The position numbers and the translations under genes are program-made. From sequence record NC_054920.1: DNA of 64,000 bases; one strand, written 5' to 3'. Positions 2,377-6,268 of this stretch are shown piece after piece. Source of the DNA: Escherichia phage vB_EcoM_G9062. Under the pieces are notes generated by a model. It had not been told where the DNA came from, did no database searches, and was given only the letters and a program-made list of their open reading frames with translations. Every line of letters begins with the position of its first letter. The first letter of the stretch is position 1.

Positions 2377-2636
2377 AAAAGATTCCTTTTAATGTATCTT
2401 TTAGACCATTCTATCATATCATCATAATCTAAAAAGTATTCATCAAATTCAGCCATGCAAACAACGCCTTGTGCTGTTTTTGATGTAATATAAATTATTC
2501 CAACATATCTAGAATCTTCTTCGGTATAATCAATGTTTGCTATGAATTCATCATTAATGTCAAATGTCGAAAACTTCACAGTATGCATCCTTAATACAAG
2601 ATACGGCCATATCTCGTAATGATTTAGGTGTGTCAT
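2373..2636 (-). CDS. hypothetical protein (87 aa)
   Basis: ORF between genes 46 and 47; start uncertain (internal Met MHTVK possible). Confidence 0.3.
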   Translation of the reverse strand: MTHLNHYEIWPYLVLRMHTVKFSTFDINDEFIANIDYTEEDSRYVGIIYITSKTAQGVVCMAEFDEYFLDYDDMIEWSKRYIKRNLL

Positions 2637-2823
2637 TATCTAAAATGTTGAAGTTAAAAGATACAGCCCAGTCAGTGCAGACTGTAACCTTTTTAATACA
2701 ATTATCTTCAACCTCTAACGGTTCAAACCAATATTCAATAATTTCTTTATGCCCAATATCATCTTTTACTTCGCATTCAAAATGCTGACTCATCATAACA
2801 TTTTTAAATTCATCAAAAGTCAT
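2560..2823 (-). CDS. hypothetical protein (87 aa)
   Basis: ORF abutting gene 47 stop; overlaps the next ORF in another frame. Confidence 0.3.
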   Translation of the reverse strand: MTFDEFKNVMMSQHFECEVKDDIGHKEIIEYWFEPLEVEDNCIKKVTVCTDWAVSFNFNILDNDTPKSLRDMAVSCIKDAYCEVFDI

Positions 2824-3839
2824 TGTGTTGCCTCTACATATAGCTGATTTGCATATTGAATAAGTGCTTCACGGTCAGAATCAGTGATGTCTGGAATTGC
2901 ATTAATATACTCTTCCATTAATGTCTGAAGCGATTGGACTTCAACTTCTTCACTGTCATCTGACTCGACAGAGTTATCAATCTTTGACACAACTCGTAAT
3001 GAATGCACAACTTTCTCTAGTTCAGATTCAAACTTCGTCAGATTTTTGTCTACTTCAGTTACTATAACACGTACTGATAGATTTGTAAAATCTTTATAGT
3101 CAATTTTTCCTTTAAATGGATAATGAATTCTACGATGCCAGGTAGTATTGTTTGGAATAAATTCCATTCGTTCTGTTTCTGTATCAAACATCCAGAACCC
3201 GCGAGGGTCATTCTCGTCACCTGCAGTTAGTGTCCATGGTGTCCCAATATATCTGACGTTAGCAGCCTCAGAGATAGTATGGAAGTGACCAGACCACACT
3301 TCTTTATAAGTCTTAAGGAAATCAGGTTCAAGACCATGAGATTTCATTCCTTTATAAAAATAAAATCCATTCAGTTCCCAGTGACCAACACAAAAAGAAG
3401 CAGATGAAGTTTTGATGTGTTCAAGAATTTCACCAGTATTTTCTTCACACATCCAAGGAATTAAATCAATCAAACATCCGTCAAAATCTACTGTAGTAGG
3501 CTTATCATACACTTTAACATTATGATATTTAGCCAAAAGCTCAGTAGAAGCATTTGGATGCATTACATTTTTGTAGTGGAGATCGTGATTTCCTACAATA
3601 GTATGTAATGTGATTCCAGCGTCATCAAGCATTTGAACTATTTCACGGGCAAACTCCATAGTTTTATGTGTAATTGCTTTTCGCACATCAAAGATATCAC
3701 CATATTGAATCCATACAGTAATTCCATTTTTCTTAGAATATTCTATCGCTTGCTTAATTCCATCAATTTGAATACCGCGAATCCACTCATCATCAGCTTT
3801 AACGCCTAAATGCCAATCACCCAAGTTTAGTATTTTCAT
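2820..3839 (-). CDS. 47: recombination/repair nuclease subunit gp47 (Mre11/SbcD-like)
   Basis: 339 aa as T4 gp47; N-terminal phosphoesterase motifs (LGDWHLG, GNHD). Confidence 0.9.
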   Translation of the reverse strand: MKILNLGDWHLGVKADDEWIRGIQIDGIKQAIEYSKKNGITVWIQYGDIFDVRKAITHKTMEFAREIVQMLDDAGITLHTIVGNHDLHYKNVMHPNASTELLAKYHNVKVYDKPTTVDFDGCLIDLIPWMCEENTGEILEHIKTSSASFCVGHWELNGFYFYKGMKSHGLEPDFLKTYKEVWSGHFHTISEAANVRYIGTPWTLTAGDENDPRGFWMFDTETERMEFIPNNTTWHRRIHYPFKGKIDYKDFTNLSVRVIVTEVDKNLTKFESELEKVVHSLRVVSKIDNSVESDDSEEVEVQSLQTLMEEYINAIPDITDSDREALIQYANQLYVEATQ

Positions 3840-4440
3840 GGTGTCTTTTCCATCCTAATTTAGCTGCTTTTGAAACCAGTTCTTTAATTTTTCCTTTTGT
3901 CCATTCAGGACCAGGAGGTTCATGACATAACATTTGCTTAACTCCGTTATTATACCATTTTTTACCTTTATTATGTGATGAAGCTTTAAATTTATTTGAC
4001 CTTCCTTTTACATAACCTTCTGGAATATAAGGCAAAAAGGCAGATTTTCCTGTTAATGGATCATGTGAATGTATATTTCCTTTACAATTATGAGAACCAT
4101 ATAATGGATGATTTTGTCCTTTATTATCTCTTCCAAATGAACCTTTTGGAGCAGCATATGACATATTAAAGAATAATGGATTTTTAACTGCATCATGCAA
4201 TCGTTGATAATATAACTCGCATTTAATAGCTTCTTCACGCGTATCAAATTCAGCTAAAATGCATGAATCAAATAAGTGAGGATTATCTGAAAGCTCTTTA
4301 TTATAAATTTTCTTATACTTTTTAGATAAAACTGAGCCATGATATCCAGCTAAATGCCTATCTAAAGACGTAGATCCAATATAAAAAGGAGGAAGTTTAT
4401 CTCCGCTATATATTGTTAAATAAGTTATATATTTTTTCAT
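3817..4440 (-). CDS. putative GIY-YIG family endonuclease-like protein (207 aa)
   Basis: N-terminus YITYLTIYSG...FYIGSTS...R..H resembles the GIY-YIG motif; basic His/Lys-rich C-terminus; sits in an intergenic slot between conserved genes 47 and agt. Confidence 0.45.
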   Translation of the reverse strand: MKKYITYLTIYSGDKLPPFYIGSTSLDRHLAGYHGSVLSKKYKKIYNKELSDNPHLFDSCILAEFDTREEAIKCELYYQRLHDAVKNPLFFNMSYAAPKGSFGRDNKGQNHPLYGSHNCKGNIHSHDPLTGKSAFLPYIPEGYVKGRSNKFKASSHNKGKKWYNNGVKQMLCHEPPGPEWTKGKIKELVSKAAKLGWKRHHENTKLG

Positions 4441-4575
4441 ATATCAAGAACCGTCATTGAAATGCAAAATAAAATTATTGAAATAAACCCATCTGGTGTG
4501 CTAAAGAACCCAATCCAACATGCTCTAGTGAATAGATAAAATGCGAGAAAAAGTATCACATATCCAAGAAATATC

Positions 4576-4600
4576 ATTATATCAAACTCCGTATAAAGCT
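4576..4600 (-). promoter_or_regulatory. possible middle/sigma70-type promoter (minus strand AGCTTTA ... TGATATAAT)
   Basis: minus-strand TATAAT with upstream TG and a MotA-box-like GCTTTA about 12 nt upstream, in the 176-bp gap before the GIY-YIG-like ORF. Confidence 0.25.
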
Positions 4601-4616
4601 AAAGGGCCGAAGCCCT
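4601..4616 (-). terminator. UUCG-tetraloop hairpin immediately after agt stop
   Basis: minus-strand AAGGGC-UUCG-GCCCUU directly following the TAA stop; weak U tract. Confidence 0.4.
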
Positions 4617-5819
4617 TTATTTTGTAATAATGTCAAACTGTTCTTTAAAGCAGAAGCTTGAATCTTGATGTTGATACAAAAATTCATATGCTTTTTCTCG
4701 CTCACGGTCATAAAGAGCTCGGTCAGATGACAGTTCTTTAATACGTTCAAACGTTGATTCCATATCATTTTCATCAAACCAAATGATACCGCTATCATGC
4801 GAGGTCAAAGGAGTATTATCAACACGGAATTTTAAATTTTCGCCAGTAGATTTCCAAAATACCGGAATTGTTCCACATGCACCAAGCTCGAGATGAGTAT
4901 ATTCTAAAGAACGTTGTAGATATTTTTTGTCCAACTTACTCAGCTGATAACCAAAACCGGATTTACTCATGCGTTCAAGCATTTCGCTATTTACATAACG
5001 GTCAAGAATTTGCGTTGGCAAATTAGGAGCAATTTTAATTTGGTCTACTTGATGAAGACGATAATACTCGTATGGAATTCCCTTTTCTTTAATAGGAATG
5101 AACGCTGGAGAACGTTCCAGACCTTCCATAATAGTACTTAGTCCTGCAGGTTTAAGATGTTTTTCATGAAAATCAAACATCTGATAAAAACCTTTCCATG
5201 TAGTCGTACGACCAATCCAACGGTTGATATTCATGTTAATTTCAGAAACATCTTTCCAGTAGGTTGACCGAACCTTCGCAATATCCATAGGAGGCTGAAA
5301 GTTATATACTGTCGGTGCTTCTTCAATATCATCAAACAGAGAAACAGTTTCTGGATACCATTCTTTCATCAGAACTTTATTAAAATCACCATTATCAGAA
5401 TGACTAAAAATAACATCAGCTCGACGAACAGTTTCTTCTAATCCCAAATTTCGACGCAAAGAAAGAGAAGAATGGTCATGTTGATAAACTACAACACGAA
5501 CAGAAGGTTTAATGTTATCAATAATTTTTTTATAGTTATTAATAGTGTCTTCTTCAACCGAAGTAGCAGGAACTGAATTGATAATTAGAATATCACAATC
5601 ATTTACTAGCTTAAGTGTTTTATCATATTCTTTTGCCAATAAAACCGGAATTGAAAATGATTTATAATCATGCGCGCAATTACGAGTAAATGATTTATCT
5701 TTAGCATAAACCAAAGTTACTTCATGACCATTTTTAATAAACCAATCACGTTGCTCGAGTGAGAATTTTGTTACACCACAACCTTCAAGACCTCGAGCCA
5801 TAAAAATACATACTTTCAT
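4617..5819 (-). CDS. agt: DNA alpha-glucosyltransferase
   Basis: 400 aa; N-terminus CIFMARGLEGCGVTKFSLEQRDWFIKNGHEVTLVYAKDKSF matches my recollection of T4 AGT. Confidence 0.85.
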   Translation of the reverse strand: MKVCIFMARGLEGCGVTKFSLEQRDWFIKNGHEVTLVYAKDKSFTRNCAHDYKSFSIPVLLAKEYDKTLKLVNDCDILIINSVPATSVEEDTINNYKKIIDNIKPSVRVVVYQHDHSSLSLRRNLGLEETVRRADVIFSHSDNGDFNKVLMKEWYPETVSLFDDIEEAPTVYNFQPPMDIAKVRSTYWKDVSEINMNINRWIGRTTTWKGFYQMFDFHEKHLKPAGLSTIMEGLERSPAFIPIKEKGIPYEYYRLHQVDQIKIAPNLPTQILDRYVNSEMLERMSKSGFGYQLSKLDKKYLQRSLEYTHLELGACGTIPVFWKSTGENLKFRVDNTPLTSHDSGIIWFDENDMESTFERIKELSSDRALYDREREKAYEFLYQHQDSSFCFKEQFDIITK

Positions 5820-5885
5820 TTAATATCCTCTTTGTTTTGGTTTATTTTACCAAAAATTTATAAAGCAATATAGGAGCCGAAGCTC

Positions 5886-6077
5886 CTATCCACATAATAC
5901 GCCATACAGAGGCTCGTTAGAACTTTTAAATTTTATGCGCTTATATTTTATAGTTCCTTCTGCTTTAGCTTTATCATGAGACTCTTTAAAGCGTCTCATC
6001 ATTTCCTCTTGAGAGGAACGAATTTTATTATAATCTATTTCAGAAGTCTGGTGTTCATCTTTCATAACTGCCACCAT
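5886..6077 (-). CDS. hypothetical protein (63 aa)
   Basis: small ORF in compact minus-strand array; stop overlaps a UUCG hairpin (5870-5889). Confidence 0.3.
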   Translation of the reverse strand: MVAVMKDEHQTSEIDYNKIRSSQEEMMRRFKESHDKAKAEGTIKYKRIKFKSSNEPLYGVLCG

Positions 6078-6268
6078 TTTTTGACTTGATAAGAATCAAC
6101 CCACACTTTCATATTGGGGTCTGCTCTTACAATAGGAGGATTAACTTCTTTAATTGAACTATCATGGTATTCTTTTTCAGAAATTTTCACACAAAGATGA
6201 CCATTCAAAGATTCAGTAAATCCTGCATTAATTTTAAGACGCTTGAATTTTACGTGTGTAAGCATCAA
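6062..6268 (-). CDS. hypothetical protein (68 aa)
   Basis: small ORF, compact spacing. Confidence 0.3.
   Translation of the reverse strand: MMLTHVKFKRLKINAGFTESLNGHLCVKISEKEYHDSSIKEVNPPIVRADPNMKVWVDSYQVKKWWQL

Follow-up and report, generated by a model that had tools for sequence, protein, structure and literature searches.

Escherichia phage vB_EcoM_G9062 (sequence record NC_054920.1) carries an open reading frame (ORF) between genes 47.1 and 47 that we interpret, with a probability of roughly 0.8, as an intact, intron-less and free-standing GIY-YIG homing endonuclease gene of a lineage distantly related to SegE of phage T4. The ORF occupies positions 3817-4440 on the minus strand of the 64,000-nucleotide stretch of this genome that we analyzed, hereafter called the window. 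The ORF listing gives it 207 codons plus a stop, with the translation MKKYITYLTIYSGDKLPPFYIGSTS...LDRH... and the N-terminal start MKKYITYLTIYSGDKLPPFYIGSTSLDRHLAGYHGS. An initial annotation made from the sequence letters had suggested a GIY-YIG-like endonuclease at this location, and that interpretation is supported by matches to Pfam and PHROG profiles, by homology to SegE and other Seg proteins, by the predicted fold, by synteny and by a C-terminal half that resembles that of SegE. The 207-residue ORF is also a real one, as a chance ORF is ruled out by a family match at 1e-94 and by conservation. The element is an ordinary kind of selfish mobile gene from a previously uncharacterised lineage, and it leaves the general understanding of homing elements unchanged. 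What makes it mildly interesting is that its target appears to lie close to the junction and that carrier alleles, susceptible alleles and putatively resistant ones occur as a natural series.

Family assignment and predicted structure

Pfam contains a single match to the protein, GIY-YIG (PF01541), which covers residues 4-84 at an E-value of 3.1e-4. Among the PHROGs, the best supported families are phrog_10820 (E 1e-94), which is labelled 'HNH endonuclease', and phrog_314 (5e-18), which is labelled 'homing endonuclease'. The initial annotation had proposed a search with PF01541 and NUMOD profiles; the former does match, just under its gathering score, and NUMOD3 (PF07460) has no match in the window protein at E<=10. 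A scan of the protein with NCBIfam gave no meaningful match. A search of 5.8 billion proteins recovered 170 relatives, many of them with NUMOD3 and one with PF01541. When the aligned relatives were scanned singly, GIY-YIG was found in 15 of 41 (E<=0.01), NUMOD3 in 18 of 41 and SegE_GIY-YIG in 1 of 41. An exhaustive HMMER search returned 1460 cluster representatives at E<=1e-3, most of which share only residues 1-120, comprising the catalytic domain, and about a dozen of which share the full length.

The label carried by phrog_10820 is also the label of this gene in many RefSeq records; other records call the gene a 'putative homing endonuclease'. An HNH identity was rejected, since Pfam holds no HNH family that matches at E<=10 (GIY-YIG only), and both the fold and the Seg homology are those of GIY-YIG proteins. 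We regard the chance that the HNH label is correct as negligible. An annotation error is therefore widespread, with the gene going by 'HNH endonuclease' or 'hypothetical protein' in many phage records.

The N-terminal GIY-YIG catalytic domain corresponds to approximately residues 1-100 (positions 4141-4440, minus strand). In an alignment of 41 homologues the invariant residues are Y7, T9, Y11, G13, P17, Y20, I21, G22, S23, Y33 and G35, followed by S39, L56, F57, A71, E75 and N92. Going by motif order, five of them (Y7, Y20, G22, E75 and N92) correspond to the tyrosine pair, glycine, glutamate and asparagine of a GIY-YIG site, and R28 is present in the window protein as well. This mapping onto residues of I-TevI is based on motif order and secondary structure and not on superposed coordinates.

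The remainder of the protein is a basic C-terminal half (positions 3820-4140, minus strand) that is presumed to bind DNA. Its residues 101-207 have an isoelectric point of 9.97 and contain 17 lysines, 3 arginines and 8 histidines, which bears out the basic, His/Lys-rich C-terminus described in the initial annotation. This half contains a truncated NUMOD3-like motif, GQNHPLYGSH, which aligns to the first NUMOD3 repeat of the NUMOD3-carrying homologues. It also contains two beta-hairpin modules, HSHDPLTGKSAFLPYIPEGYVKG and KKWYNNGVKQMLCHEPPGPEWTKGK, after which comes a terminal helix; the predicted strands lie at residues 123-126/133-136 and 161-164/169-172 and the helix at 186-202.

An AlphaFold model of the protein has a mean predicted local distance difference test score (pLDDT) of 85, with values above 90 over residues 1-90, and displays a GIY-YIG fold with its three-stranded sheet and helices. 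A Foldseek comparison with the PDB places the I-TevI catalytic domain at the top (probability 0.99, E 0.04). A comparison with BFVD yields 80 viral models at E<=1e-3; nearly every one that bears a name is a GIY-YIG, Seg-like or NUMOD endonuclease.

Several observations weigh against the assignment of an active enzyme of this class. The PF01541 score of 21.4 bits is slightly below the gathering score of 22.6. The column that holds R28, the counterpart of R27 in I-TevI, is arginine or lysine in the family and occasionally neither, and in T4 SegE, too, the residue aligned there is not basic. Additionally, a search of PDB sequences with the family profile found none at E<=10, and hhalign aligns the family with I-TevI over a NUMOD3-like stretch only and not over the catalytic domain; because both of these comparisons are negative, the link to I-TevI is a structural one only. 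Cleavage by the endonuclease, its target and its homing are also all inferred.

The sub-threshold Pfam score and the arginine column that is not strictly conserved would both suit an inactive remnant, in which catalysis has been lost and the ORF is still open. We consider this improbable, as the window protein has Y7, Y20, G22, R28, E75 and N92, is 100% identical in many independent isolates and belongs to a family that is under purifying selection between genera. Moreover, SegE is active and likewise has no arginine at the aligned position.

Relationship to the Seg endonucleases of T4

A hidden Markov model (HMM) of the protein's family was used to search all ORFs encoded in T4. The matches were SegE (2.4e-10), SegG (2.4e-6), SegC (1e-5) and SegD (1.7e-3), followed by weaker ones to SegB (0.023) and SegF (0.042) and, with a model of the N-terminal part, to SegA (0.013); no unrelated T4 ORF fell below an E-value of 0.01 with the family HMM, and none ranked ahead of the Seg proteins. 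By BLASTP the protein is 28% identical to SegE over residues 20-192, and hhalign gives this pair a probability of 96.7%. The alignment with SegE covers the catalytic domain and both C-terminal modules, which read CYTNGTKNIFIKPGELVPEGFVKG and FWVNNGAINKLIQPDGIIPDGFIKG in SegE and correspond to the two beta-hairpin modules described above.

SegE is therefore the best T4 match, and the two proteins have a number of features in common. Both contain a catalytic domain of the form YIG...GY.GS..., and in both the C-terminal part carries a pair of W.NNG......P...P.G(F/W).KG modules. Each protein has about 205 residues and is encoded by a free-standing gene that a middle promoter serves (PMC2988022). 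They differ in that identity is only 28% and in that segE is located between inh/hoc and uvsW, whereas the gene described here is located at the 47.1/47 junction. Unlike SegE, the window protein has YITYLTIY as the motif of its first beta-strand and a truncated NUMOD3-like linker motif, the 3' end of its gene overlaps an essential gene downstream, and its activity is a prediction. The other Seg proteins (SegG, SegC, SegD, SegB, SegF and SegA) are members of the same superfamily and are likewise encoded by intron-less homing genes between conserved T4 genes, but their matches are weaker, their C-terminal regions and targets are different, and none of them is situated at gene 47. In contrast to I-TevI, which is encoded in the T4 td intron, there is no intron here, neither a zinc finger nor a helix-turn-helix, and no similarity of catalytic-domain sequence that profile comparison can detect.

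As judged from sequence and a modelled structure, the gene is of the Seg type, given its homology to SegE, SegG, SegC and SegD, the GIY-YIG fold of the model, its sporadic distribution and its free-standing position as an insertion between intact 47.1 and 47 genes (no search for intron RNA was made). A 2010 review of mobile elements in T4 lists no endonuclease gene at 47.1/47 (PMC2988022), and we found no paper that names this endonuclease. An HMM of the Seg family detects no second GIY-YIG ORF among the ORFs of at least 70 codons in the 64-kb window, and the same model matches SegA to SegG in the T4 genome, including segB and segC. Phage G9062 thus seems to have a set of homing endonuclease genes different from that of T4.

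A 601-bp insertion that is present in a minority of phages

Alignment with T4 defines an exact insertion/deletion of 601 bp between 47.1 and 47 (positions 3840-4440, minus strand), a segment that T4 and the majority of Tequatrovirus genomes do not have; in agreement with this, the spacing between flank markers is 601 nucleotides in carriers versus 0 in non-carriers. The segment is bounded by a 7-nucleotide direct repeat, ATGAAAA, one copy of which is at the start of the endonuclease gene and the other at the start of gene 47. In T4 the stop codon of 47.1 overlaps the ATG of gene 47 (…GATATATGAAAATTTT…). In the window the same upstream sequence enters the ATG of the endonuclease gene (…GATATATGAAAAAATAT…), with the TGA of 47.1 overlapping this ATG (as ATGA) in the arrangement that T4 has at the start of gene 47, and gene 47 begins 601 nucleotides further on (…GACACCATGAAAATACT…). 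The last 23 nucleotides of the endonuclease ORF are also the first 23 nucleotides of gene 47. The region in which translation of gene 47 originally began now belongs to the insertion.

By comparison with annotated T4, the ORF is flanked by gene 47 (positions 2820-3839, minus strand), which encodes an Mre11/SbcD-like subunit of a recombination nuclease, and by a-gt (positions 4617-5819, minus strand). The initial annotation was correct in locating the ORF between these two genes but not in describing the slot as intergenic, as the ORF overlaps both the stop of 47.1 and the start of gene 47. It had also treated positions 4441-4616 as a 176-bp gap downstream of the ORF. Because the ORF is on the minus strand, this interval is upstream of it, and it holds gene 47.1 (positions 4437-4577, minus strand), which encodes a hydrophobic protein of 46 residues that is conserved in T4 and 100% identical to T4 gp47.1. 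Comparison of the interval from gene 47 to a-gt reveals a presence/absence polymorphism of 601 bp. T4 has no conserved non-nuclease gene at this position, which would have argued against a mobile endonuclease; its slot is empty.

Megablast matched the endonuclease ORF, with 95-100% identity, to sequences in 67 phage records, and every one of these phages is Tequatrovirus-like. A 1.9-kb query that extends over both flanks matches about 600 records, and its middle part is present in only 67. Carriers amount to 67 of the approximately 550 records with the locus, or about 12% of Tequatrovirus records (about one in eight), and include Bas45 PaulHMueller of the BASEL collection. The flanks are joined directly in T4, T2, RB14, RB32, RB51 and several hundred others, and the flank identity of non-carriers such as PYPS2T (98.4%) equals that of carriers. 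Since a scan of IMG/VR provided only 28 gene 47 loci, population counts were taken from BLAST queries with chimeric junctions; counts of non-carriers are approximate, as the identity bands of the junction searches mix full and half matches. Patchy carriage combined with non-carriers that have clean junctions fits a dispensable selfish gene.

Three records contain irregular copies. Shigella phage KNP5 (an unverified record; positions 951-1450 of the extracted locus) has a copy of the ORF without nucleotides 178-400, and in ESh34 and KMB22 the tblastn matches to the endonuclease are in two pieces. These copies have possibly decayed, and assembly or sequencing errors are an equally good explanation.

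Changes in gene 47 that are linked to the insertion

The presumed target gene of the endonuclease is gene 47. We compared the flanks of four carriers, together with the internally deleted copy of KNP5, with those of nine non-carriers over 330 nucleotides to the left and 420 nucleotides to the right. Polymorphisms in these flanks form a mosaic that is unrelated to carriage, with the exception of nucleotides 9, 10, 15 and 18 of gene 47, which are in codons 3-6 (positions 3822-3831, minus strand). Carriers have A, C, C and G at these sites (ATA CTA AAC TTG) versus T, T, T and A in non-carriers including T4 (ATT TTA AAT TTA), and all four differences are synonymous. No other site in the first 44 nucleotides of gene 47 is variable among these carriers and non-carriers.

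The association extends to the larger collection of records. None of the 67 carrier junctions falls below 96% identity to the window type, and the single junction at 96%, that of P922, retains three of the four linked changes. A chimeric query in which the end of 47.1 is joined straight to the carrier-type start of gene 47, with at most one mismatch counted, found the carrier-type allele without the insertion in about 8 of about 438 non-carrier records, namely SHFML-26 (two records), BCPEco_001, BCPSen_003, Ec_YwIITB1, PBM-1, UGKSEcP1 and EPIMAM01. Several hundred other non-carriers, T4 and T2 included, have all four mismatches, and the T4-type junction is the common type. In Shigella phage SHFML-26 (positions 901-1007 of the extracted locus), for example, the carrier-type allele of codons 3-6 is joined directly to 47.1. 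Genomes of this kind may have arisen by loss of the gene through deletion between the ATGAAAA repeats, or may represent resistant alleles.

Phages of the genus Dhakavirus exhibit a parallel difference. Non-carriers (n=4) read ATA (T/C)TA AAC AC(A/T) and carriers (n=3) read ATT CTT AAT AC(G/A), so that carriers and non-carriers differ at the same codons as in the window lineage, independently and in the opposite direction.

These comparisons suggest that the linked changes are a divergence of the target site that protects carriers, and that at least part of a candidate recognition site is located at codons 3-6 of gene 47, which adjoin the sequence encoding the GDWH metallophosphoesterase motif. 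We advance only tentatively, as something that may well prove wrong, the further idea that this lineage recognises and cuts DNA in the manner of an intron-encoded enzyme, no more than a few codons from where it is inserted, at the very start of gene 47, and that it has tracked this site through many genera of the Straboviridae. If this is true, the recognised site is beside the codons for the GDxH catalytic motif of an Mre11-like nuclease, and the overlap of the endonuclease frame with the gene 47 start means that deletion of the element risks damage to a nuclease that is needed for the element's own homing. Non-carriers of the SHFML-26 type would then be naturally resistant alleles, and the whole cycle of invasion, immunity and loss would be visible in sequenced phages.

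A plausible course of homing would begin in a mixed infection, with the endonuclease made from the middle transcript of promoter P47 (described below). The C-terminal region would bind the 47.1/47 junction of a co-infecting phage without the gene, and the N-terminal domain would then make a double-strand break, perhaps with 2-nucleotide 3' overhangs by analogy with other GIY-YIG enzymes. The cut genome would then acquire the gene, along with markers close to it, through recombination-dependent repair of the T4 kind on the carrier template. Carriers would be shielded both by the insertion itself and by the four synonymous changes in codons 3-6 of gene 47.

A target at the junction is open to three objections. 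It is atypical, as the characterised Seg enzymes of T4 cut hundreds of base pairs from their own genes (PMC2988022). The four linked sites are at most 18 nucleotides from the insertion, so that recombination would rarely separate them from it and physical linkage to donor DNA alone could hold them there. They are also inside the overlap of the endonuclease and gene 47 ORFs. An enzyme that is Seg-like but cuts hundreds of base pairs away, in gene 47, gene 46 or a-gt, as SegF, SegG and SegE do, would leave the four changes as a remnant of donor sequence. Distant cutting of this kind is typical of the characterised free-standing endonucleases of T4 (PMC2988022), and a foreign origin of the four changes is conceivable given that the window-type ATA CTA AAC is found in one Dhakavirus non-carrier. 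However, the 330 nucleotides to the left and 420 nucleotides to the right contain no further polymorphism linked to carriage, where an immunity difference is expected if the site were there. The Dhakavirus carriers and non-carriers, moreover, differ independently at the same codons in the opposite direction. On balance we think distant cutting rather doubtful. Carriers, susceptible alleles and putatively resistant alleles are all available among sequenced phages, which makes target choice, immunity and loss of the element testable.

Relatives in other genera

Relatives with 50-80% identity are found directly upstream of the gene 47 homologue, usually overlapping its ATG, in eight other phage groups. 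These include the Dhakavirus phages IME08, NC-G, KIT01 and vB_EcoM_005, the Gelderlandvirus SEA1, Klebsiella phages of the KP185 type, Serratia phage LC53 (in which the two genes do not overlap), Erwinia phage FBB1 and Aeromonas phage L9-6. This seg-like lineage, which T4 lacks, keeps in several genera to a single conserved presumed target, the start of gene 47. Pairwise ratios of nonsynonymous to synonymous substitution (dN/dS) of the endonuclease between genera are 0.1-0.26, with dS near saturation, and on the evidence of these comparisons the lineage is under purifying selection. The shared C-terminal ...ENxx is ATGAAAAT of gene 47 read in the other frame; therefore, the overlap of the two ORFs is old.

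Purifying selection at this level, residence at the same locus in many genera and a conserved overlap with the gene 47 start that gives the shared C-terminus are also what might be seen had the endonuclease been domesticated and kept for the benefit of the phage, whether as a weapon against co-infecting phages, as a promoter of local recombination or amplification, or as a translational partner of gene 47. There is a precedent in a 2026 paper, which describes SegB as benefiting the phage by amplifying anti-defence loci (PMC13096335). A gene kept for such a benefit is difficult to reconcile with carriage in only about 12% of Tequatrovirus records, with differences in carriage between close relatives and with the existence of non-carriers that have clean junctions. 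Some carriers also appear damaged (the internal deletion of KNP5 and the two-piece matches of ESh34 and KMB22), and we consider domestication unlikely.

In IME281, EcWhh-1 and Yersinia phage TG1 (positions 2501-3184 of the extracted loci), paralogues whose C-terminal region is of the NUMOD3 type lie before gene 39 and overlap it. Their catalytic domain is 45-58% identical to that of the window protein (BLASTP, over the aligned part), and they too are inserted directly before, and overlap, a conserved gene of DNA metabolism. They differ from the window gene in that their C-terminal region consists of NUMOD3 repeats and in that the host gene encodes the large subunit of topoisomerase II (gene 39). 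These paralogues illustrate domain swapping and target switching, in which a catalytic module has been recombined with other DNA-binding modules.

Two further observations concern the Dhakavirus relatives. The IME08 record (positions 921-1394 of the extracted locus) gives gp47 an N-terminal extension of 81 nucleotides (1104 nucleotides in all), which reaches into the 3' part of the endonuclease ORF, itself left unannotated there, and this extension is probably a mis-annotation. In vB_EcoM_005 and KIT01 the endonuclease is a variant of 251-256 residues with a different C-terminal tail after ...KGRKWYNNG, and the start of the accompanying gene 47 is different even in protein sequence (MKILNIGDLHIG versus MKILNTGDWHLG). 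This form of the enzyme may have a variant specificity, with a resistant target to match.

Transcription signals and the surroundings of a-gt

The initial annotation had noted a possible promoter and a UUCG hairpin in the interval 4441-4616, and both do exist, upstream of the ORF and not downstream as had been stated. The promoter (positions 4576-4599, minus strand) consists of a MotA box, GCTTTA, a 12-nucleotide spacer, TACGGAGTTTGA, and a perfect -10 element, TATAAT, and is identical in T4. Hinton's review gives the MotA box consensus, a spacing of 12±1 and the position of the T4 middle promoter P47 at T4 coordinate 36576 (Table 1, PMC2988021). This coordinate maps 8 nucleotides after the ATG of 47.1, which is approximately position 4569 in the window (there is a 13-nucleotide offset between T4 records). 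The promoter upstream of the endonuclease gene is the known P47 of T4. Because the inferred start is inside 47.1, the P47 transcript of carriers has the endonuclease gene as its first complete cistron, before genes 47 and 46; gene 47.1 is translatable only from longer upstream transcripts because the start of the P47 transcript would lie 8 nucleotides past its ATG.

Promoters specific to seg genes are middle or late ones, and middle promoters are typical of these genes (PMC2988022). No late promoter, TATAAATA, is present near the endonuclease ORF, and a sigma-70 scan placed no site within 4441-4616, its total number of sites being lower than chance would give. RNA folds at the starts of the endonuclease gene and gene 47 are no stabler than those of shuffled sequences and give no sign of sequestration of the start sites. 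The pattern GCTTYA-N11-13-TANNNT occurs 23 times in the 64-kb window, mostly on the minus strand, versus 6.7 expected, a number that was reached in 0 of 100 shuffles; these 23 sites are candidate middle promoters of phage G9062.

The hairpin (positions 4600-4619, minus strand) has an 8-bp stem, UAAAGGGC UUCG GCCCUUUA, with GGGC-UUCG-GCCC at its stem and loop. T4 has the identical sequence, and the annotation of fPS-90 calls it a terminator. The 71-nucleotide stretch around it has a folding energy of -14.6 kcal/mol, and the stop codon of a-gt supplies the first three bases of the hairpin. It serves a-gt as a terminator or stabiliser and lies outside the mobile element.

The other side of a-gt also appears to depart from T4. 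In T4 the HNH gene mobB is directly upstream of a-gt; positions 5820-6080 of the window contain only small ORFs, as in fPS-90, and mobB appears to be absent from this interval. A two-part module on the minus strand, composed of a UUCG hairpin and then a promoter of the MotA-box type, is present on both sides of a-gt, with the hairpin at 5870-5889 and the promoter at 5844-5866 before the gene and the hairpin at 4600-4619 and the promoter at 4576-4599 after it. Between positions 3600 and 6000 there are 5 terminator-like hairpins versus 1.1 expected.

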